A stretch of 64,000 nucleotides of DNA from Fusobacteriota bacterium (GCA_051746725.1 JBNJFI010000002.1:2460-66459); one strand, 5' to 3'. Shown: positions 8,079 to 55,031, counted from the first letter of the stretch. The notes: generated by a model not told the origin, from the sequence alone. A program made the numbers and translations.

Positions 8079-8477
8079 TTAACATTCTTTTATTTTTATA
8101 TGATTTAAAAAGTTTTTTCCAATTTTTTTATCAATAAAGTAAATCAGAAAAAAAGAAATCACTAAACTTAATATACTTATTAAGACCTGAATAGGCTCTT
8201 TATTTGTAAAATAAGTTGATATATAATACCCTAGTATCATAGATAAAATAGGAAAAAAGTATATTAAAACTCCTAGAGAAAATATATATCTATTTTTTAT
8301 CTCAAAATGAATTATATCTCCTTCTTTAACATCCCTATCTGTAATAAACTCTTTTTCTCCAACAATCTTGTTTTCGGAAGAACATTTATCACAAGAACCG
8401 CAGTTTTCATCTTGTAATAAAGTCACAGTTATATGATTTCCGTTTTTTTCTTTAACAATTCCTGTAGATTCCATCAT
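8079..8477 (-). CDS. RseC/MucC-family protein (SoxR-reducing/positive sigma-E regulator family)
   Basis: The N-terminal soluble part carries CGSCDKCS, followed by two C-terminal TM helices. This is the typical RseC layout. Confidence 0.6.
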   Translation of the reverse strand: MMESTGIVKEKNGNHITVTLLQDENCGSCDKCSSENKIVGEKEFITDRDVKEGDIIHFEIKNRYIFSLGVLIYFFPILSMILGYYISTYFTNKEPIQVLISILSLVISFFLIYFIDKKIGKNFLNHIKIKEC

Positions 8478-8884
8478 TCACCTCGCGTTACCTCGAATTC
8501 TTTTTTGATTAAAATATTATTATTTGAATCCACTATTTTAACTTCCCATACACCTGTTTTAGATAAATACTTATTCGACCATGTTCTCCATCTTGGACCA
8601 GAAACTTTTAATTTAACTCTACTGATTTCTGTGGTTTTATCACCATTTTTTGTACTCCAAACATGATAGATATAATCTTCAGTATCTGAGTTTAAAATTT
8701 CGGAAAATAGAGTAGCTCTTTCTCCTAATTTAAATTTTTCTTTTTTGGCTAAAGGTTCACGTTCTTTAATATCTTCACACAATATAGCCCGTGAAACTCT
8801 TTCTTTTCTTTCTGAAGAATGATTGTTACTCAGGACCACAATTGAAGATGTAACTAAAAGTAATAGTATTAGTATTTTTTTCAT
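8474..8884 (-). CDS. small exported protein, possibly DUF2914-like
   Basis: A signal peptide MKKILILLLLVTSSIVVLS is present. The C-terminal RWRTWSN...GVWEVKIVD pattern fits, but the family assignment is only a recollection. A 4-nt overlap links it to the rseC-like gene. Confidence 0.45.
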   Translation of the reverse strand: MKKILILLLLVTSSIVVLSNNHSSERKERVSRAILCEDIKEREPLAKKEKFKLGERATLFSEILNSDTEDYIYHVWSTKNGDKTTEISRVKLKVSGPRWRTWSNKYLSKTGVWEVKIVDSNNNILIKKEFEVTRGE

Positions 8885-8969
8885 AAAAAAACCTCCTTAT
8901 ATTGTATTATAATAATTTTACCACATAGGTGCTTAAATTACAAATATTAGTTGAAAAAAAGGGGGAATT

Positions 8970-11144
8970 ATGTTAAAATTTAATAGAAAATATATGAAAA
9001 ATAAGGAGTTAATAATGAAAAATATAGAAGGAATAAAAAATGAATTATTAGGAATTTTATTCACAGGAATAGGAGGATATATTTCTTATATTTTAATAAA
9101 AGACCTAGGACAAACTAAAGTTGGTATATTGGGACAACAGTTACATAAGGGTCTATTTTTTTTAATTGGAGATTTATCTTATTTGTTACCGGTTATCTTA
9201 ATATTATATGGATTTGTTTTCTTAGTTAATAAAAAAGTTAAAATAAATAAATTAAAATTAGTAGCATTTATTATCTTTTTTCTTCTCTTACTTTCGTTAA
9301 TGGTCATGTCACAAATGGACATAAACAACACCCAGGAAGTTGGAAAGGGAGTTAAAGAGATATTACGTATAGGTGGAAATAGGAGTTCAGGGGGAATGAT
9401 TGGAGCTATTATTTCAATTGCTCTGTTTACTCTCTTTGGTAATCCAGGAGCCATTATTATTTTGTTAACTCTGATGTCTTTATCTTTGTTTATTTTTGCC
9501 AATCAACTAATAAAAAGTTTAGTAAAAGGAATTTTTGTTAATTTAAAAAATATAAAAATGCCTAAATTAAAAAAGAAAGTTTCAACTAAAATCAAAAAAG
9601 TTAATAAAAATAATAAGCCTGAAAAAATAAAAAAAAGAATAAAATTAAAAAAGCAAGATAAACGTCTAAAACAAAAAAAGAAATCTATTAATTCTAAAGA
9701 ATCTAAAAACAAAGAGATAAAAAAGACTACAAAAACCAGAGAACCTTCTAAAAATAAAGTAGCTATTCAAAATAAAAAGACCGATTCTGGTAGTGAAGTA
9801 AAAGTCGAAGGTTTATTTGATGAAAAAAATAATAGTGATCAAGATGTCAAAGAAATAAAAAAACAAATTGAACATAAAATTGAAAATTTAGAGCGAGTTT
9901 TATTAGAACATAAAATCGAGGCAAAAGTTATAAACTATGAACGAGGACCTGTAATTACAAGATTTGAATTGAGTATTCCCAGAGGAGTACGTGTTAAAAA
10001 AATTGTTGCTAGAACAGATGATATTGCAATGAATTTAGCAGCTAAAAGTATTAGAATAGAAGCTCCTATACCAGGAAAGAATGCAGTGGGAATTGAAATA
10101 CCAAATGATGTAAAAGAGGCTGTTTATTTTTCAAGTTTAATAAAAACTAAACAATATAAAAATTCTGATGCAAAATTAAAATTAATCCTTGGAAATAATA
10201 TTGTTGGAGATCATATAATAGTAGACCTAACTGAGATGCCTCACCTTTTAATAGCAGGAAGAACAGGATCTGGAAAAAGTGTTTGCATTAATACACTTAT
10301 TTCTGGTATGATATCTAAAATGTCACCTGAAGAAGTCAAATTTATTTTAGTTGATCCAAAAATGGTGGAATTAATGCCATATAACGATATTCCACACTTG
10401 TTAGTCCCTGTTATAACTAACCCAAAACTTGCGGCTACAGCTCTAAAATGGACTGTAAATGAAATGGAAGATAGGTACAAAAAATTATCAAAGTTACAAG
10501 TCCGTAATTTAGAATCATATAATAAAAAATCATCTGAAGAAAATTTACCATATATAGTTGTTGTTATTGATGAATTAGCGGATCTCATGATGGTAGCTTC
10601 TTCTTCTGTTGAAACATCTATATCTAGGATTGCTCAAAAAGCACGGGCTGTTGGAATTCACCTTATAATTGCAACTCAAAGACCTTCAACTGATGTAGTA
10701 ACAGGAACAATAAAAGCAAATTTACCATCTAGAATATCTTTTTCTGTTGCATCTCAGATAGATTCTAGAACTATATTAGATACTTCTGGAGCAGAAAAAT
10801 TACTTGGGAAAGGAGATATGCTGTTTTTAGAATCAGGAAGCCCAAATCTTTCAAGGATTCAAGGAGCTTTTATAACAGATGAAGAGGTTGTAAAATTAAC
10901 AGAATATTTAAAAAAACAACGGTCACCTGAATATAATGAAAAAGTTACGAGCCAAGAATTTAATAAAGAGACCGATGAACTTTTTGATAAAGCAATTGAA
11001 GTTATTAAGGAAGCTGAAAAAGTTTCTATATCACTTTTACAAAGGAAACTTAGAGTTGGCTATGCTAGAGCAGGAAGAATTGTAGATGATTTAGAGGAAA
11101 ATGGTATAATATCAAGTGACAGGGAGATTTTAATAGATGTATAA
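8970..11144 (+). CDS. ftsK: DNA translocase FtsK/SpoIIIE
   Basis: The protein has N-terminal TM helices, a Lys-rich linker and a motor domain with Walker A GRTGSGKS and Walker B VVVIDELADLM. A C-terminal gamma winged helix (LLQRKLRVGYARAGRIVDDLE) is present. An alternative start at 9015 follows AAGGAG. Confidence 0.9.
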   Translation: MLKFNRKYMKNKELIMKNIEGIKNELLGILFTGIGGYISYILIKDLGQTKVGILGQQLHKGLFFLIGDLSYLLPVILILYGFVFLVNKKVKINKLKLVAFIIFFLLLLSLMVMSQMDINNTQEVGKGVKEILRIGGNRSSGGMIGAIISIALFTLFGNPGAIIILLTLMSLSLFIFANQLIKSLVKGIFVNLKNIKMPKLKKKVSTKIKKVNKNNKPEKIKKRIKLKKQDKRLKQKKKSINSKESKNKEIKKTTKTREPSKNKVAIQNKKTDSGSEVKVEGLFDEKNNSDQDVKEIKKQIEHKIENLERVLLEHKIEAKVINYERGPVITRFELSIPRGVRVKKIVARTDDIAMNLAAKSIRIEAPIPGKNAVGIEIPNDVKEAVYFSSLIKTKQYKNSDAKLKLILGNNIVGDHIIVDLTEMPHLLIAGRTGSGKSVCINTLISGMISKMSPEEVKFILVDPKMVELMPYNDIPHLLVPVITNPKLAATALKWTVNEMEDRYKKLSKLQVRNLESYNKKSSEENLPYIVVVIDELADLMMVASSSVETSISRIAQKARAVGIHLIIATQRPSTDVVTGTIKANLPSRISFSVASQIDSRTILDTSGAEKLLGKGDMLFLESGSPNLSRIQGAFITDEEVVKLTEYLKKQRSPEYNEKVTSQEFNKETDELFDKAIEVIKEAEKVSISLLQRKLRVGYARAGRIVDDLEENGIISSDREILIDV

Positions 11145-15479: not shown

Positions 15480-17165
15480 ATGAAAAAAACGATATTTTTT
15501 ATGATATTATTAATCAGTATTTCGGGATATGGTGAGACTGTCATTCCTAGTGGAAATGACGATATATATTTTGAATTTGATACAAAGAATTTTCTAGTTT
15601 CAAACATTAAATCAAAAAAGCATGAGATACCATTGGAAAAATTAAAATTTGGAATTTTCATTGATGATAAATTTATAAATTTTAAAGATATTAATCAAAA
15701 AATTGAATATATCATTAATACCAATATTATACAGATAACTTCAATAATAGATAATATTGAAATAACAACTTATTTATATGCATCTTACAAAAATACTCCA
15801 CGAATCTATGTACATTCAAAAATTAATGCTATGAATTTTTCCGGTTCAAAAGCAATAAAGATGTTTTATAATTTAAATCCTATTTCTAAAAATGAAGTAT
15901 TTAATGTTGATGACGATTTTCTTCAAGAAGAGAATATGAGAATCAAATCTTTAAATAATATGAATACTTTTTATTTGGCAAATAGTCGGAAAATAGATAA
16001 CATAAGCTTAAAAAGTAAAAAATTAACTAAAATACATGAAAATAAAAATAGATCTGAAAATGAAAATATCCTTGTGATTAGTGATTTAGGAAATATATCA
16101 AAATATGAAAAAAAAGAAGACTTCTCAGTTATAGCTTTTGACGAAAGAACACCAGATTTTTTAGATATTAAGTACACTCATCCTATTGGAGAACAAATTC
16201 CTCTTTGGAAGCATTGGTTAAGCAATATACCTTTTGATAATTTAACTGATACAGAACAAAAGATAATGCACCAAAATTTTTCGTTATTAAAAACTTTTAA
16301 TGCTGAGAATAATTCTTTATCTTTTGATTATAATGATCAAAATGATATTGATACTAAATTAAAAATAACTCTAGCTTTTTTAGAGGGGGGACACTTAGAT
16401 AAGGGATTTGAAAATTTAAATTGTTTATTGGATAATTATATAAAACAAACAGACCTTGAAAGCTTAACTGATTTTGAAAATTTTGCTAAATTTTTAAATT
16501 TATTTGCCAAATATATTAACAAAAGTTCAAACACTTTATTTTTACAAAAAAATTATGTATATATTGTCAATTACATAACAGAACCTATATATAATAAATT
16601 AAAAAACACTAAAAATATTTCAACTTTAGAATCAGCTAGTAGTTTATATAATTTATCTATTATCTTAAAAGATTTTTCTGATGAACTTGAATGGTTTATT
16701 CCAGATGGACTCCTAACTAAGTATCGATATCAAGCCAATGACATGATAAGCAAATTTAAAAATAAAAAATTAGAAAAAATAAAAATTTCTGAAATAAAAG
16801 TTGAAGATTTGTATTTTTTAGTTAGATCTGGCTTAATTTCTAATAACAAGCTGACTCAATTTTTACTGAGTTTTAAAACAGAAAATACCGAATTGAATAA
16901 TTATAAAACATATAGGATGATAGACAAAATTATAGTAATTAAATCCTTATATGAGATAGGTGATTTTGATGAAGCAATGGAAATCAAGAAAGAGCTGGAT
17001 CAAATAATTATGGATAACAACTATATAATTCCTGAGTATGTTAAACAAAATAATAATATATATAAATATGGTGAAGAAGGAATTGACCTTAATTTAGCTG
17101 CTGAATACATTTTAATGATATATGATAGAGAAAAATTAAGGAGTAAATATGGATATCAAAAATAA
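15480..17165 (+). CDS. hypothetical secreted protein (561 aa)
   Basis: A signal peptide MKKTIFFMILLISISGYG is present and no firm motif is seen. The C-terminal helical-repeat-like region is only vaguely reminiscent of (alpha/alpha)6 glycosidases. The gene overlaps scpB by 17 nt. Confidence 0.4.
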   Translation: MKKTIFFMILLISISGYGETVIPSGNDDIYFEFDTKNFLVSNIKSKKHEIPLEKLKFGIFIDDKFINFKDINQKIEYIINTNIIQITSIIDNIEITTYLYASYKNTPRIYVHSKINAMNFSGSKAIKMFYNLNPISKNEVFNVDDDFLQEENMRIKSLNNMNTFYLANSRKIDNISLKSKKLTKIHENKNRSENENILVISDLGNISKYEKKEDFSVIAFDERTPDFLDIKYTHPIGEQIPLWKHWLSNIPFDNLTDTEQKIMHQNFSLLKTFNAENNSLSFDYNDQNDIDTKLKITLAFLEGGHLDKGFENLNCLLDNYIKQTDLESLTDFENFAKFLNLFAKYINKSSNTLFLQKNYVYIVNYITEPIYNKLKNTKNISTLESASSLYNLSIILKDFSDELEWFIPDGLLTKYRYQANDMISKFKNKKLEKIKISEIKVEDLYFLVRSGLISNNKLTQFLLSFKTENTELNNYKTYRMIDKIIVIKSLYEIGDFDEAMEIKKELDQIIMDNNYIIPEYVKQNNNIYKYGEEGIDLNLAAEYILMIYDREKLRSKYGYQK

Positions 17166-20035: not shown

Positions 20036-21493
20036 ATGAATTTAAATGAATTATCAGCTTATGAAATAAGAGAAAAAATAAAAAATAAGGAAATTAAAGT
20101 TTTTGATCTTATTTCTGAAATATTCACCAAAATTGAAAATACAGATGATGAAATAGGAAGTTTTGTTTATTTACGAAAAGAAAAAGCCCTTGAAGAAGCA
20201 AAACAGGTAGATAAGAAAATAGAAAATGGAAAACCTTTAAGAGAATTAGAAGGTATTCCAGTTGCATTGAAAGACAATATGGTTTCAAAAGGAGATCTTT
20301 CAACTTCTGGATCTAAAATTCTATATAATTATGAGGGAATTTATGACGGTACTGTTACTAAACGATTAAAAGATTCAGGTGCGATTATAATTGGAAAAAC
20401 TAATATGGACGAATTTGCCATGGGATCTTCTACAGAAACTTCATATGCAAAACAAACATCAAATCCATGGGATACTAATAGAATACCAGGAGGATCAAGT
20501 GGAGGAGCAGCAGCTTCAGTTGCAGCATCTCAATCTTTAATATCTTTAGGTTCTGATACAGGAGGAAGTATAAGACAACCAGCATCTTTATGTGGAGTTG
20601 TTGGATTAAAGCCGACATATGGACGAGTTTCGAGATATGGTTTAATGGCTTTTGCTTCTTCATTGGATCAAATTGGACCGATAACAAAAAATGTACAAGA
20701 TGCTGCTTTGACTATGAATACTATTGCAGGATATGATCCTAATGATTCTACTTCTGTGGATATTGAAACTCCTGATTATACAAAGGACCTAGATAAAGAT
20801 ATAAAGGGGATGAAAATAGGTGTTCCTAAAGAATATTTTGTAGATGGAATGGATAAAGGAGTCAAAAAAGTTATTCAAGATTCTATAGATAAATATAAAG
20901 AATTAGGGGCAGAAATAATAGACATTTCATTACCTCATACTAAATATGCTACGGAAACATATTATATCATTGCTCCTGCTGAAGCTAGTGCCAATTTATC
21001 ACGTTATGATGGAGTTAGATATGGATATCGATCTGAAAAGTTCAAAGATTTAATTGATATGTATGTTAAATCTAGAAGTGAAGGATTTGGACCAGAAGTT
21101 AAACGAAGAATAATGATAGGTACTTATGTTTTGAGTTCTGGATATTATGATGCATATTACAAAAAAGCTCAAAAAGTTAGATCTTTAATCAAAAAAGATT
21201 TTGATGATGCATTTGAAAAAGTAGATTTAATATTGACCCCTACTTCGCCTTCAGTAGCTTTTAAAAAAGGTGAAAAGACTGATGATCCAATAAAAATGTA
21301 TTTATCTGATATATTTACAATATCGGCAAACTTGGCTGGGATTCCTGGATTATCTATTCCTGCAGGATTATCTGATGGACTTCCTGTTGGAGTTCAACTT
21401 CTAGGAAAACCTTTTGATGAAAAAACTCTTTTAAATGCTGGTTATAAATTTGAGCAAAAAAGAGGAGACTTTAAACTACCGGAGGTTGATTAA
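20036..21493 (+). CDS. gatA: Asp/Glu-tRNA(Asn/Gln) amidotransferase subunit A
   Basis: The amidase signature GGSSGGAAASVAA...GSDTGGSIRQPA is present. Confidence 0.95.
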   Translation: MNLNELSAYEIREKIKNKEIKVFDLISEIFTKIENTDDEIGSFVYLRKEKALEEAKQVDKKIENGKPLRELEGIPVALKDNMVSKGDLSTSGSKILYNYEGIYDGTVTKRLKDSGAIIIGKTNMDEFAMGSSTETSYAKQTSNPWDTNRIPGGSSGGAAASVAASQSLISLGSDTGGSIRQPASLCGVVGLKPTYGRVSRYGLMAFASSLDQIGPITKNVQDAALTMNTIAGYDPNDSTSVDIETPDYTKDLDKDIKGMKIGVPKEYFVDGMDKGVKKVIQDSIDKYKELGAEIIDISLPHTKYATETYYIIAPAEASANLSRYDGVRYGYRSEKFKDLIDMYVKSRSEGFGPEVKRRIMIGTYVLSSGYYDAYYKKAQKVRSLIKKDFDDAFEKVDLILTPTSPSVAFKKGEKTDDPIKMYLSDIFTISANLAGIPGLSIPAGLSDGLPVGVQLLGKPFDEKTLLNAGYKFEQKRGDFKLPEVD

Positions 21494-28339: not shown

Positions 28340-28350
28340 ACTTAGTAAAA

Positions 28351-28385
28351 ACACCGGAACTTGAGTATACTCAAGTTCCGGTGTT
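28351..28385. terminator. bidirectional intrinsic terminator at the convergence point
   Basis: The near-perfect 17-bp-arm palindrome ACACCGGAACTTGAGTA/TACTCAAGTTCCGGTGT has an A-run upstream and a T-run downstream. Confidence 0.8.
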
Positions 28386-28429
28386 TTATTATAAAATATA
28401 GGTAGATCGAAGTAAATAGAATTTTCTAA

Positions 28430-28457
28430 ATATTACATAACATACATTATCGGACGT
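28430..28457. other. dif: candidate dif site (Xer recombinase chromosome-dimer resolution site)
   Basis: The minus strand reads ACGTCCGATAA-TGTATG-TTATGTAATAT, an 11-6-11 layout. By hand count it matches 21/28 of the remembered B. subtilis dif and 19/28 of the remembered E. coli dif. It sits in the gap where the coding strand switches. Confidence 0.55.
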
Positions 28458-28518
28458 AAAAACTTCTTTTAATATTGTTTTTCCCCTTTTTTGAATCACT
28501 CACTCTCTCCTACCTAAT

Positions 28519-33195: not shown

Positions 33196-33225
33196 AAAAA
33201 ATAAAAAAAAGCACATTTGTGCTTT
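33196..33225 (-). terminator. intrinsic terminator after tRNA-Thr
   Basis: The minus strand reads AAAGCAC-aaat-GTGCTTTTTTTTATTTTTT. Confidence 0.7.
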
Positions 33226-33228
33226 AAA

Positions 33229-33305
33229 TGGAGCCGCCTGCCCGAGTCGAACGGGCGACCTACTGATTACAAGTCAGTTGCTCTGGCCATCTGAGCTAAG
33301 GCGGC
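33229..33305 (-). tRNA. tRNA-Thr (anticodon UGU), CCA encoded
   Basis: The hand-folded cloverleaf has acceptor GCCGCCT/AGGCGGC, anticodon stem ACTGA/TCAGT, loop CTTGTAA, T-arm GCCCG-TTCGACT-CGGGC and a terminal CCA. Confidence 0.9.
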
Positions 33306-33320
33306 AATATTATATGGTTT

Positions 33321-33397
33321 TGGCGGGAGTGACGAGATTCGAACTCGCGACCTCCTGCGTGACAGGCAGGCGCTCTAACCAGCTGAGCTACACCCCC
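33321..33397 (-). tRNA. tRNA-Asp (anticodon GUC), CCA encoded
   Basis: The cloverleaf has acceptor GGGGGTG/CACTCCC, anticodon stem CCTGC/GCAGG, loop CTGTCAC, T-arm GCGAG-TTCGAAT-CTCGT and a terminal CCA. Confidence 0.9.
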
Positions 33398-33412
33398 TCA
33401 ACCACGAAGATA

Positions 33413-33441
33413 AGTATATCATGTTTTATATTGTTTGTCAA
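33413..33441 (-). promoter_or_regulatory. near-consensus promoter for the tRNA-Asp/tRNA-Thr pair (TTGACA-17-TATACT)
   Basis: On the minus strand TTGACA lies at 33441-33436, inside the 3' end of the PHP CDS. TATACT lies at 33418-33413, about 15 nt upstream of the mature tRNA-Asp 5' end. Confidence 0.65.
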
Positions 33442-34114
33442 TATTTTTATTAATTTTTTTTAGAAGTGATCTAGAGTTTTCTTTAACTACCTTATATGCC
33501 CTTTCTTTGGATAATCCAGATGAAATTGCAACTTTATAAGCAAACTCTTGCGTAATAAAATCTCCCGGAGTATGTCCATCTGAGTTTACTATTAAATTAG
33601 CATTATATTGATTAGCCTTTTTTGCTACATGTCCATTTGAAAGTGAATGGCCTCTTCTAGCTGAAAGTTCTAAGAAAACATTATTTTCTGCAGCTTTTTT
33701 GACAACATCATCTTTAATTAATCCTGGATGAGCTAAAACATCTACATATTTAGAGGAAACTGCAGCCAAATTTGTACCTTTTGTTACTGGTTCAACTATA
33801 GTTTCTCCGTGAACTATTACAATTTTTGCTCCTTTTTCTTTAGCTTGTTTTGCTAAATCATCAATTAATTCAGGTGGTACATGAGTTAATTCTACGCCAG
33901 GAAGTATTTCTATATCATAATACTTTCCTTCCTTTTTTATAACACTATTTATTTTAGTTAATATTTCATCTATATTACTTATATCAGCATGATCAGTTAT
34001 ACCTATGCATGCATATCCGAGCTTCTCAGCTCTTCTTATGTGTTCACTTAGTAGTAGGACTCCGTCACTCAAAAAAGTGTGTGTATGGAACTCGTATCTC
34101 TTTCCTAAATTCAT
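33419..34114 (-). CDS. PHP-domain metal-dependent phosphoesterase
   Basis: YEFHTHTFLSDG, GITDHAD, VHGE and NSDGH are PHP His/Asp metal motifs. The ATG at 34114 is preceded by GAGGAGG; the track ORF extends to 34186 without an RBS. Confidence 0.75.
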   Translation of the reverse strand: MNLGKRYEFHTHTFLSDGVLLLSEHIRRAEKLGYACIGITDHADISNIDEILTKINSVIKKEGKYYDIEILPGVELTHVPPELIDDLAKQAKEKGAKIVIVHGETIVEPVTKGTNLAAVSSKYVDVLAHPGLIKDDVVKKAAENNVFLELSARRGHSLSNGHVAKKANQYNANLIVNSDGHTPGDFITQEFAYKVAISSGLSKERAYKVVKENSRSLLKKINKNIDKQYKT

Positions 34115-34239
34115 TGTTTCCTCCTCATATTTCTTTGATTCGTATATATAAGCTTTTGATTTTTTATTAATTTTATACGTTATCAATTAAAATTATTTAG
34201 ATTAGTACTTAAAATAAAAAACATTGCAACCTGGAATTT

Positions 34240-34722
34240 TGTTATTTTTAAGAAAAAAAATATAAAAGTATTTTATGTTTTTTTGGCTTACGATATAGAT
34301 ATTTTGTTCATTAATTCTTATTTTTTTTAGATAAAGCAGATAAATTTGATATGACTTTACCGCACATAATGAAGAGAATGGTGTAAGTAAGTCTTATTAT
34401 TTCCAGAAAAAAACATATTTTTATATATTTTTTTCTTATGATATAGATATTTTGTTCATTAATTTTTATTTTCTTTAGGTAAAACAGATAAGTTTGTATA
34501 TGACTTTACCGCACACAATGAAGAGAATGGTGTAAGGTAAGTCTTATTATTTCCAGAAAAAAACATATTTTTATATATTTTTTTCTTATGATATAGATAT
34601 TTTGTTCATTAATTTTTATTTTCTTTAGGTAAAACAGATAAGTTTGTATATGACTTTACCGCACACAATAAAGACCATTGTGTTCGGTAAGTCTCATTAC
34701 CTTCAGAAAAAAACTCTGAAGG
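34240..34722. repeat. tandem direct repeats, three copies of a ~150-bp unit, each containing a long imperfect hairpin
   Basis: Unit starts lie near 34287, 34435 and 34585, giving periods of 148 and 150 bp. About 86 bp of copies 2 and 3 are identical, and the 41-bp linker is identical between the 1/2 and 2/3 junctions. The hairpins lie at 34353-34393, 34502-34543 and 34652-34693 (GACTTTACCGCACA...GTGT..GGTAAGTC). Confidence 0.9.
34700..34722 (-). terminator. hairpin just downstream of the CBS-HATPase gene stop
   Basis: CCTTCAGA-7 nt-TCTGAAGG is a perfect 8-bp stem lying 11 nt after the stop. The T-run is in the loop rather than downstream, so terminator activity is uncertain. Confidence 0.35.
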
Positions 34723-34732
34723 CAATTCGGCT

Positions 34733-35665
34733 TTACATCCAAAAAAGCATTTCCAACTTAGTACCATTTCCTTTTTCTGAGGTAATGAGCAATTTATCTG
34801 CAAATCTATTTATATTAGCAAGACCCATACCAGCACCAAAGCCAAGTGATCTAATGTATTCAGGGGCAGTAGAAAAGCCAGTCTCCATTGCCTTATCAAT
34901 GTTTTCTATTCCTGGTCCAATATCTTCAATAATAACCATTATCGAATCTCTATCAATTTTGACCAATATCTTTCCAATTCCTCCACCATGAATAACAACA
35001 TTCACTTCTGCCTCATAGGTAGCAATACTTATTTTTCTTATTAATTTATCATCAAATTCCTTCTTTTTCAAGTATTCTTTTAGTAGAGCAGATCCTTCTC
35101 CTGCATCATTAACATCATTATTATTTATATCATATTTAAATTCTGTATTTTTATTTTGGATCTTATCCTTTATTAAAATAGATAATGGAGAATTTAATAT
35201 CTCACGTCTTCTTTCATCATGAAGATATAATGCAGATAATTTTCTAACTACAGTAAAAAGTATATCTTTTTTGGTAATTAAACCTACTAAATTGTTTTCA
35301 GAATCTACAACAGGATATCTTCCATAATCATAAGTCGATATATATTCTATGATTTTTTCGAAACTATCTTTTTCATTTAAAGTTAAAACCTCTTTATCAG
35401 GAGAATTCAATATTTTAGTTTCAATTTCTTGTTTTTCTAAAACTTTTATGATATCTTCCATTGTTATTATATTTACTAATTTATTTTCGGGAGTAACAAT
35501 TGGGATCCCTGATATTTTTTCATCTTTCATTATCTGTTGAGCACGTTTGTATGTATCTTCTTTAGTTAATGATATTACACTTGTATTCATAACTTTTTTG
35601 ACATTGAGATCTGTAAAAAAATCTATATATCTTTTTAATAGCATTAACTCTTTATCTTTTTGCAT
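34733..35665 (-). CDS. CBS-pair domain protein fused to an HATPase_c (anti-sigma-factor/Ser kinase-like) ATP-binding domain
   Basis: The N-terminal half has two CBS repeats (ISGIPIV..., YGRYPVVDSENNLVGLITKKDI). The C-terminal half has an N-box EAEVNVVIHG, a G1 box EDIGPGI and a G2 box GFGAGMGL. Confidence 0.7.
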   Translation of the reverse strand: MQKDKELMLLKRYIDFFTDLNVKKVMNTSVISLTKEDTYKRAQQIMKDEKISGIPIVTPENKLVNIITMEDIIKVLEKQEIETKILNSPDKEVLTLNEKDSFEKIIEYISTYDYGRYPVVDSENNLVGLITKKDILFTVVRKLSALYLHDERRREILNSPLSILIKDKIQNKNTEFKYDINNNDVNDAGEGSALLKEYLKKKEFDDKLIRKISIATYEAEVNVVIHGGGIGKILVKIDRDSIMVIIEDIGPGIENIDKAMETGFSTAPEYIRSLGFGAGMGLANINRFADKLLITSEKGNGTKLEMLFWM

Positions 35666-35687
35666 CGATTACCTCCTAAAAGTTGAC

Positions 35688-36032
35688 TTAACATGATGGG
35701 ATATCTTGCTCATACAGCTTTCCACAAGCAGGATATAACAATTTATCTGTTACTAACATTGGAATTCCTACTTTATTTGATAGGTCAATAGTATCCTGCT
35801 TTGGCATTTTACCTCTAACAAACATAATTGCTTCTAAATCCATCATCTGAGCAGTTCTTATGACTTGAGGAGTTATTAACCCTGTTAATAGTAATGCTCC
35901 CTCTTTTGAAAAAGCCAAAACCTCACTCATCATATCTGCAGCACCAACAGCTTTTATCTCAATATTATCAATTTTATCTTCACAAGTAATAACTTTTGCA
36001 TCAAGTATTTTAGAAATTTCAGATAGTCTCAT
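35688..36032 (-). CDS. DRTGG-domain protein
   Basis: The protein is 114 aa. ALLLTGLITPQVIRTAQMMDLEAIMFVRG matches the DRTGG-type fold pattern. It lies directly upstream of the CBS-HATPase gene. Confidence 0.6.
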   Translation of the reverse strand: MRLSEISKILDAKVITCEDKIDNIEIKAVGAADMMSEVLAFSKEGALLLTGLITPQVIRTAQMMDLEAIMFVRGKMPKQDTIDLSNKVGIPMLVTDKLLYPACGKLYEQDIPSC

Positions 36033-53824: not shown

Positions 53825-54661
53825 CTAATCTAATATAATAGTTTTATTTCCACTAATAAAAACTTTTTCTTCAAAAACTAATTTTAACGCTTTAGCCAAA
53901 GCAAGTTTTTCGGCTTCTCTTCCTGCCTGTTTCATATTATCAGTTGTATATTCGTGATTAACCTTTATAACTTCCTGAGTTATTATAGGCCCTTCATCTA
54001 AATTATCATTTACAAAATGTGAAGTCGCTCCAATCATTTTCACCCCTCGATTAAATGCTTGTCTATAGGGATTAGCCCCGATAAATGCCGGCAAAAAAGA
54101 ATGGTGAATATTAATTATTTTATTTCTCCATTTATTTACAAAATGTGGAGTTAAAATACGCATATATTTAGCTAAAACTAAGTAATCAGGATTATATTGA
54201 TCTAAAATTTCTAAAACTTTTTCCTCATGTTCTTCTCTGTCTAGCCCCTTTGTTGGTACATAGTGAAAAGGGTGATTAAACTTATCTACTAAATTTTTTA
54301 AAATTTCATGATTGCTTACAACTGCAATTATTTCAGCATTTATTTCATCGTATTCATCTCTTATTAATAAATCCCCTAAGCAATGATGCTCTTTAGTTGC
54401 TAATATTACAATCTTTTTTTTCTTTGTTTTAGATAACTTTATCTTTGCATCGTTGGGTAATATCTCTTTTAGGTTTTTTATTATATCTGTTTCTTTTATC
54501 TCTCCAGAAAATTTTGTTCTCATGAAAAACTTTTTTGCTTCTTTTTCCACAAATTCATTATTATTTATTATATTTAGACCATATTTTGATATAACTCCTG
54601 TTATTTTATGAACCAAGTTCTGAGCATCATCACATGTTATTGATAATATATGTTTATTCAT
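53825..54661 (-). CDS. purU: formyltetrahydrofolate deformylase
   Basis: An N-terminal ACT-like segment is followed by a formyltransferase core IINIHHSFLPAFIGANPYRQA. Confidence 0.9.
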   Translation of the reverse strand: MNKHILSITCDDAQNLVHKITGVISKYGLNIINNNEFVEKEAKKFFMRTKFSGEIKETDIIKNLKEILPNDAKIKLSKTKKKKIVILATKEHHCLGDLLIRDEYDEINAEIIAVVSNHEILKNLVDKFNHPFHYVPTKGLDREEHEEKVLEILDQYNPDYLVLAKYMRILTPHFVNKWRNKIINIHHSFLPAFIGANPYRQAFNRGVKMIGATSHFVNDNLDEGPIITQEVIKVNHEYTTDNMKQAGREAEKLALAKALKLVFEEKVFISGNKTIILD

Positions 54662-55031
54662 ATTCTTCCTCCATTTTTTTTATTTTACTTTTTAAGATTT
54701 CATTTTCACTTTTTAATTTTTGATTTTTTTCCTTAAGTTCATTATTTTTAAATTTCATTTTTTTTATAAATTCATTTTTATTTTCTAATTCAGAATTCAC
54801 TTTATCTAATTCATCTTCTAGATATTGTTTTTTAATTTTAGCTTTTTTGATTTTTTTATCCTTACGTTTCAAATCTTTAGCTAATTTTTGTCTTTTATTT
54901 CTCTCTTTTTTATACATAATAAAAGTAATTTTTTTTTCAACTTTCACTAAATAATCAAAAAAGTTTCTTAAAGTTTTTATAATAAAATTCCATATTTTTT
55001 TACTTATTTTTTGTAATAATATATTAACCAC
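54654..55031 (-). CDS. hypothetical Lys/Glu-rich coiled-coil protein
   Basis: The protein is 125 aa and almost entirely heptad-like K/E/L/N sequence. It overlaps purU by 8 nt. No motif is recognised. Confidence 0.4.
   Translation of the reverse strand: MVNILLQKISKKIWNFIIKTLRNFFDYLVKVEKKITFIMYKKERNKRQKLAKDLKRKDKKIKKAKIKKQYLEDELDKVNSELENKNEFIKKMKFKNNELKEKNQKLKSENEILKSKIKKMEEEYE

Follow-up and report, generated by a model that had tools for sequence, protein, structure and literature searches.

A three-copy tandem array at a Fusobacteriota operon junction, probably an orphan minisatellite within a lineage-specific insertion

Why should a genome with tightly packed genes carry a long non-coding gap between two neighbouring genes of an operon, and do the repeats that occupy most of this gap act individually, as RNA genes, leaders or operators? 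These questions are raised by a locus in the 64-kb window studied here, that is, the whole stretch of Fusobacteriota DNA that was analysed (28% GC). An ORF map confirmed that the interval of 618 bp at 34115–34732, between the stop of the CBS-HATPase gene (34733) and the start of the PHP gene (34114), is the longest non-coding stretch of the window, the runners-up being a 265-bp gap with the genes for tRNA-Asp and tRNA-Thr and another one of 179 bp. An earlier note on this DNA described the gap as three tandem repeat units, each with a long imperfect hairpin, and offered several readings of them: small antisense transcription units, reiterated leader elements of PHP, an array of operator sites or only a duplicated spacer. 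Our results favour a reading close to the last of these, namely that the array is probably an orphan intergenic minisatellite residing inside a lineage-specific non-coding insertion.

The origin of the gap can be approached through related loci, for which we used Haliovirga abyssi and five metagenomic relatives (n = 6). The order DRTGG, CBS-HATPase, PHP is common to the window and the relatives, and in all six of the latter CBS-HATPase and PHP either overlap by 4 bp or are separated by just 1, 10 or 28 bp. The gap therefore represents about 612 bp inserted into an ancestrally coupled junction (Table 1), with approximately three quarters of the insertion made up of the repeat array. The alignment of the CBS-HATPase protein with its relatives reaches the end, yet the protein is three residues shorter (terminating in LFWM versus FWKEEE or FWREKL), and its new end is encoded by TGG ATG TAA (34733–34741). 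At the other side of the gap, the PHP start, MNLGKRY, is aligned with those of the relatives and is directly preceded by GAGGAGGAA (34118–34126). In the closest relatives, GAGGAGGAA is the end of the CBS-HATPase gene, where it encodes the C-terminal EEE and doubles as the ribosome-binding site of PHP. Judging from these alignments, the insertion removed three codons from CBS-HATPase, with PHP left with a Shine-Dalgarno sequence of its own; GAGGAGGAA could equally be a survivor of the ancestral junction or a Shine-Dalgarno sequence that evolved independently. No target-site duplication is cleanly callable, the ancestral junction being known only via relatives with ~62–70% protein identity, and the insertion as a whole displays no terminal inverted repeats (TIRs; 15/40 matches between its ends). 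The PHP protein has a 100% identical counterpart in a metagenome-assembled genome of an uncultured member of the Fusobacteriota; the best non-identical matches share at most 71% identity with it, and the nearest cultured relative is H. abyssi (68%). The 156 bp beside PHP show no detectable derivation from the repeat when searched with an nhmmer profile of the units; the promoter-like matches in them, such as TTGATA-16-AAAAAT (34186–34159, − strand), are all weak. Synteny is also broken just downstream of PHP, which in the relatives precedes other genes and not tRNA-Asp/tRNA-Thr.

Table 1. Features of the CBS-HATPase/PHP locus; positions are counted along the 64-kb window.
Feature	Position	Strand	Remarks
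PHP / histidinol-phosphatase-like gene	33419–34114	−	Intact; start aligned with relatives
Unrepeated part of the insertion	34115–34270	−	PHP Shine-Dalgarno GAGGAGG (34126–34120); weak promoter-like matches
Lineage-specific AT-rich insertion	34127–34738		~612 bp, 22.5% GC; from the last conserved CBS-HATPase codon (TGG, 34741–34739) to the PHP Shine-Dalgarno sequence
A/T-only junction palindrome, copy 0/1 boundary	34254–34284		AGAAAAAAACATAT-TTTT-ATATATTTTTTTCT
Tandem array	34271–34714		Tandem Repeats Finder: period 150 bp, 3.0 copies, 92% matches, score 727
Unit 1, older 'a' type	34271–34420		Carries each of the 13 differences from copy 2, two of them 1-bp deletions
Hairpin 1, degenerate	34353–34393		−7.0 (+) / −6.7 (−) kcal/mol; z −0.7 (+) / −1.5 (−), chance level relative to shuffles
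A/T-only junction palindrome, copy 1/2 boundary	34405–34436		AGAAAAAAACATAT-TTTT-ATATATTTTTTTCT
Unit 2, recombinant	34421–34570		5' part as unit 3, 3' part as unit 1; no private changes
Hairpin 2, intermediate	34502–34543		−12.7 (+) / −12.6 (−) kcal/mol; z −2.9 / −3.6; 2x2 internal loop
A/T-only junction palindrome, copy 2/3 boundary	34555–34586		AGAAAAAAACATAT-TTTT-ATATATTTTTTTCT
Unit 3, older 'b' type	34571–34720		Adjoins the CBS-HATPase stop; best hairpin
Hairpin 3, best	34652–34693		16 pairs, one bulge, one mismatch; −17.9 (+) / −19.7 (−) kcal/mol; z ~−5
Stop-proximal hairpin	34696–34726	−	13-bp stem, two G.U pairs, UUUUU loop; 6 nt past the CBS-HATPase stop
CBS-HATPase gene	34733–35665	−	C-terminus LFWM, versus FWKEEE or similar in relatives

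Within the insertion, Tandem Repeats Finder delineates the three head-to-tail units of ~150 bp that the earlier note had placed at 34240–34722, and the array together with its boundary palindromes covers ~34248–34726. The aligned units have a mean column identity of 93%. Between copies 1 and 2, 13 of the 144 positions aligned are different, which agrees with the dozen or so substitutions noticed before; the identical block shared by copies 2 and 3 is also real, although it measures 133 bp (34387–34519 = 34537–34669) and not 86 bp. No other repeat with a period above 34 bp was found in the window by Tandem Repeats Finder, nor any other long repeat by self-BLAST. As for shorter repeats, overlapping AT-rich tandem repeats with periods of 7, 16–18, 21 and 34 bp and up to 6.6 copies cluster at 54678–54792, inside or beside the − strand ORFs 53825–54661 and 54654–55031, and may correspond to a repetitive peptide or a slippage-prone tract. 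Self-BLAST additionally returned two short repeat pairs of 43–47 bp with 85–86% identity, one direct and one inverted (53089–53135/53347–53393 and 11815–11857/43442–43481), which probably reflect conserved coding motifs.

The distribution of the 23 variable sites inside the array points to how it grew. At all 12 sites in alignment columns 3–98, copies 2 and 3 agree and copy 1 stands apart; at all 10 substitutions in columns 102–135, it is copies 1 and 2 that agree and copy 3 that stands apart. Copy 2 has no private site, and the sole exception to this mosaic is a 1-bp deletion in copy 1. When the site labels were permuted 100,000 times, such a partition arose twice. This clean mosaic is the mark of one recent unequal crossover between misaligned units, which turned two copies into three (a, a hybrid of 5' b and 3' a, and b), with the crossover point between 34516 and 34520. 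Since the ancestral pair is only 84% identical (121/144), the two-copy state is old and the third copy recent. The same event accounts for the homogenisation suspected in the earlier note, whose suggestions of a recent duplication or homogenisation and of a merely duplicated spacer both gain support from the mosaic. Head-to-tail copies with a number altered by unequal recombination or slippage are what define a minisatellite or variable-number tandem repeat (VNTR), and both features are present here. Blocks of 25 nt and 18 nt are unchanged in all copies of the unit; together with the 84% identity of the ancestral copies they could be a sign of constraint, although a run of this kind has a chance probability of ~0.26 by a hand estimate, the element is seen in one genome and the three copies amount to two independent lineages.

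We then asked what the palindromic structure of the units can say about function. Each unit contains the inverted repeat GACTTTACCGCACA...GTAAGTC at the position described before, and copy 3 indeed has the best stem. Hairpin 1, however, folds no better than shuffled sequences (Table 1). Hairpin stability declines with distance from the upstream CBS-HATPase gene, from −18/−20 through −13 to −7 kcal/mol, and the stem differences between copies are all one-sided losses. The covariation check proposed in the earlier note gave a negative result: RNAalifold detects no compensatory pairs on either strand among the three paralogous copies. By our own count of the variable sites, the two old copies are unlike each other in 5 of 35 stem columns, compared with ~15% elsewhere in the unit, so that conservation is not higher in the stem than outside it. 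The − strand of the whole gap folds with z = −7.3, a score that is expected of any palindrome array.

Two further kinds of palindrome, absent from the earlier description, complete the picture. Every unit boundary carries an A/T-only junction palindrome, and the unit ends thereby form an A/T-only inverted repeat of 14 nt that is 93% complementary. The other is a hairpin located just past the CBS-HATPase stop, with a stem that is also visible in the RUF4 Rfam alignment. Only 8 bp of it pair on the + strand, where the two G.U pairs would be mismatches, and one of its arms is complementary through four copy-3-specific substitutions. Strand hints drawn from wobble-pair asymmetry conflict between the junction palindromes and the unit hairpin, and they come from effectively two independent sequences.

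The signals for transcription around the array are consistent with read-through. A scan identified no intrinsic terminator inside the array, where no unit pairs a stable stem with a U-tract on either strand, and none after CBS-HATPase. On the + strand a U-rich tail comes after hairpins 1 and 2, the stems of which are weak (−7 and −12.7 kcal/mol). Hairpin 3 has a strong stem, but the sequence next to it, UCAUUACC on the + strand and AUAUACAA on the − strand, is no U-tract. The identity of the hairpins as Rho-independent terminators was accordingly rejected, as a stable GC-containing stem with an immediate U-tract is seen in no unit. With no intrinsic terminator present, read-through into PHP is the default expectation, and the gap is most likely transcribed within a read-through operon mRNA on the − strand, as judged from these sequence signals. 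Canonical signals are used elsewhere in this genome, namely a TTGACA-17-TATACT promoter with an upstream TG before the tRNAs and, in the window, classic terminators at 33225–33208 and 28349–28388, which have perfect GC-containing stems and T-runs directly after them. The near-consensus promoter (33413–33441, − strand) is located within PHP, at its 3' end; tRNA-Asp(GTC) and tRNA-Thr(TGT) follow at 33229–33397, and the canonical terminator at 33208–33225 comes next.

A protein product is equally poorly indicated. The sole ORF per unit (35 aa, − strand) lacks a ribosome-binding site, would not yield a hydrophobic peptide and is interrupted in copy 1 by two 1-bp deletions; every reading frame of the unit is closed or disrupted by indels. 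The indels and the missing ribosome-binding site led us to reject a peptide-coding reading. A type I toxin-antitoxin module of the Ibs/Sib kind was likewise discarded, there being no conserved hydrophobic ORF per unit and no match for the translation. ToxI-like RNAs of type III systems consist of repeats of ~34–45 nt situated directly upstream of a toxin endoribonuclease gene. The unit here is 150 bp long and the downstream gene is a conserved PHP phosphoesterase, repeat-free in all relatives examined, and we rejected this assignment too.

Searches for known families and for further copies were uniformly negative. At gathering score, Rfam recognised two tRNAs only in the window, and at E ≤ 10 the region 34000–34850 yielded two chance matches, which scored 19.6 and 13.9 bits where 42 and 55 are needed for gathering, upholding the earlier statement that the hairpin belongs to no known riboswitch or sRNA class. 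An integron attC array (CALIN) was dismissed on the absence of RYYYAAC / GTTRRRY from both strands of 34115–34740, and a CRISPR array because the whole 150-bp unit is repeated and unique spacers are absent. The exact hairpin pattern had no match in genome contigs in a first scan and one chance match, in GC-rich Verrucomicrobia coding DNA, in a second; metagenome contigs gave three chance matches in GC-rich coding DNA and viral contigs none. Against plasmids and phages, blastn returned short AT-rich chance matches only (E ≥ 0.05). The six-frame translation of the unit matched none of 5.8 billion proteins, and literature searches turned up nothing relevant. Finally, the search for the unit elsewhere, as advised in the earlier note, recovered the array only when an nhmmer profile of the three units was run against the window and the six related loci; dispersed copies, the hallmark of REP, BIME and MITE families, have no second locus within the 64 kb examined. 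The note had regarded absence of transcription from the region, of the unit from related genomes and of covariation in the stem as joint marks of a neutral tandem duplication, and the last two are what we observed, the unit being absent from the six related loci and the stem without covariation.

Can the units nevertheless be RNA genes or leaders? One alternative holds that they are three tandem + strand sRNA genes antisense to the operon, each with a promoter in the A/T junction (TTTCCA-18-TATATT) and an end at the hairpin plus TTATTATTT, producing ~115-nt RNAs that pair with the read-through mRNA. That promoter-like match (9/12) does occur at both internal junctions, and it is the only kind inside the array, with none on the − strand. 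Hairpins 1 and 2 are followed by the U-rich TTATTATTT; five one-sided + strand changes (G-C/G.U/A-U, in a rod-like fold) preserve predicted pairs at a small covariation penalty; and tandem sRNA arrays such as LhrC1–4 and PrrF1/2 are known. However, the promoter-like matches are at the AT-rich background, with 16 sigma-70-like matches in 33200–35700 against 13.9 expected from shuffles, and upstream of copy 1 the −35-like hexamer is absent. The extended −10-like box TGATATAGA that the earlier note ascribed to each unit reads CGATATAGA in copy 1 and is missing the invariant final T of the −10 element, and TGnTAnnnT is found in no unit on either strand. The supposedly shared tail is confined to hairpins 1 and 2, copy 3 having TCATTACCT instead, which leaves the U-tailed units with weak stems and the strong-stem unit without a U-tail, in contrast to the perfect stems and immediate T-runs of the genome's real terminators. 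Moreover, the gain of G.U pairs is compositional, the + strand being the T-rich one on which they arise cheaply, and the collections searched hold no homologues. Thus, small antisense transcription units, as proposed in the earlier note, are quite unlikely. Its other RNA reading, a reiterated cis-regulatory leader of PHP (a riboswitch or an attenuator on the − strand), fits the position upstream of PHP on the coding strand and the good folding of that strand, but the folding score is of the kind noted above for palindrome arrays, PHP is leaderless in six of six relatives, where the genes abut, Rfam offers no match, a terminator/antiterminator arrangement is lacking and, of the three copies, the one closest to PHP has the poorest structure; we consider such a leader very improbable.

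Other readings are at the level of DNA. The array might be a relic or a tandem amplification of a non-autonomous mobile element (MITE-, REP- or BOX-like) dispersed elsewhere in the genome, with A/T-rich TIRs (ATATATTTTTTTCT ... AGAAAAAAACATAT) and a subterminal hairpin. Its unit ends are inverted repeats, the DNA is inserted relative to all six relatives, and the related H. abyssi has an intergenic repeat that is dispersed (3 copies per 20 kb) and built of modules in varying number, which makes a mobile element somewhat more plausible, though that repeat is unrelated in sequence. On the other hand, neither nhmmer nor self-BLAST finds a second copy in the 64-kb window, the public collections searched contain none, the 'TIRs' consist of A/T runs of low complexity, no TIRs bound the complete insertion and the six annotated flanking ORFs include no transposase, so that this origin, too, is unlikely. 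An array bound by a dimeric protein through the 16–17-bp inverted repeat, 6 kb from dif, with the role of an operator, a partition site or a replication-fork barrier, would suit three regularly spaced palindromes at ~5.8 kb from a dif-like site and a GC-skew switch. It is nonetheless highly improbable, considering that the half-sites have lost at least three positions in two of the three copies, that the annotated adjacent genes encode no recognisable DNA-binding domain, that no oppositely oriented copies lie across dif within the window and that operators are not typically palindromes of 41 bp around a 7-nt centre; the operator array envisaged earlier is thus unsupported. That the repeat is an assembly artefact is suggested by its source, a metagenome-assembled genome (MAG), by a period of exactly 150 bp, a common read length, and by the 133-bp exact repeat. 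We regard this as scarcely probable at all: the copies differ by 7–16% with indels, in a pattern fitting a biological crossover, strain bubbles do not yield direct tandem copies, and the largest k-mer of common assemblers exceeds 133 bp, the longest exact repeat. The copy number of the array could still be an underestimate, as any additional copies of identical sequence would be collapsed when short reads are assembled. There is an outside chance that the unit is an undescribed structured element, either a ~115-nt cis-antisense RNA or a hairpin-bearing mobile module, that invaded a coupled operon and sets the CBS-HATPase/PHP expression ratio through a tunable copy number.

The window also appears to span the replication terminus, ~5.8 kb from the array. 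A dif-like site, ACGTCCGATAA-TGTATG-TTATGTAATAT, is located at 28430–28457 (− strand) in the 179-bp gap (28340–28518), and presumably matches the Bacillus subtilis dif at ~22 of 28 positions. The genes converge on this gap, GC skew flips from +0.2 to −0.25 near 28 kb, and a perfect 40-bp bidirectional terminator palindrome (28348–28387) lies beside the site. The true dif-like site has no second copy, and a dif/IMEX-like site within the repeat unit was dropped as a candidate. Left of the terminus, two − strand ORFs (132 and 136 aa) occupy 8079–8884 amid an otherwise + strand gene block.

Among known systems, the array, read as a minisatellite, invites comparison with intergenic VNTRs of bacteria, for example the mycobacterial MIRUs, which are tandem units of tens to ~100+ bp in the intercistronic gap of an operon, have no dedicated product and change in copy number by unequal recombination or slippage. 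Unlike the array, MIRUs are dispersed at many loci and often contain short ORFs that keep translational coupling; here, a single locus is present in 64 kb and the frames are closed or broken. Elements of the REP/BIME, ERIC, BOX and Correia types share with the array an imperfect palindrome just past a stop codon inside an operon transcript, a modular and tandemly variable build and a possible role in stabilising mRNA 3' ends, but they occur in tens to hundreds of dispersed copies, whereas the unit shows no dispersal within the window and no similarity in the collections searched. LhrC1–4 of Listeria and PrrF1/2 of Pseudomonas resemble the array as head-to-tail intergenic units of ~110–150 bp, each ending in a hairpin, yet every one of their units has a strong promoter and a canonical terminator and is conserved across strains or species, in contrast to the background promoters, the missing combination of stem and U-tract and the lack of conservation seen here.

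The dispersed repeat of H. abyssi is closer at hand, as it occurs in the same bacterial family, in AT-rich intergenic DNA upstream of gene starts, with modules present once or twice in tandem; one copy even resides in the same operon, before CBS-HATPase. It differs in having no detectable similarity to the window unit, in its module size (~47–55 bp versus 150 bp) and in its dispersal (3 copies per 20 kb). In the fetched locus of AP027059.1 it is found at 8864–9023, 16438–16652 and 20162–20271, all copies having the same orientation and each ending ~15–45 bp before a + strand gene start. Module A (AAGGAACGGCTTAAAAACAACCTT...AAAATACGCAACGGTT) and the 47-bp module B (AAGCGTTTTTATAACAAAA...TTTTTTAAACGTTCTT) each appear once or twice. 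The repeat has no Rfam match and may represent an element of the genus, REP/BOX-like or promoter-bearing, that is as yet undescribed.

Collectively, hairpin decay, background-level signals and the lack of conservation lead us to infer that selection does not act on the single units as RNA genes, leaders or operators. Only the two hairpins that follow the CBS-HATPase stop (34696–34726 and 34652–34693) look maintained. From their position and stability, these two could act as a barrier at, or a stabiliser of, the mRNA 3' end of the upstream CBS-HATPase cistron, and also as a spacer that uncouples the translation of PHP, for which its own GAGGAGG site now serves.

As a probable minisatellite, the array is ordinary, one more orphan among those found between bacterial genes, with little significance beyond this genome; interest in it would rise only given transcripts or dispersed, covarying copies. 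It nevertheless provides a clean, small example of an operon junction split by non-coding DNA and of minisatellite growth by a single unequal crossover that is still legible in the site patterns. For this uncultured lineage of Fusobacteriota, the array could serve as a VNTR marker for strain typing.
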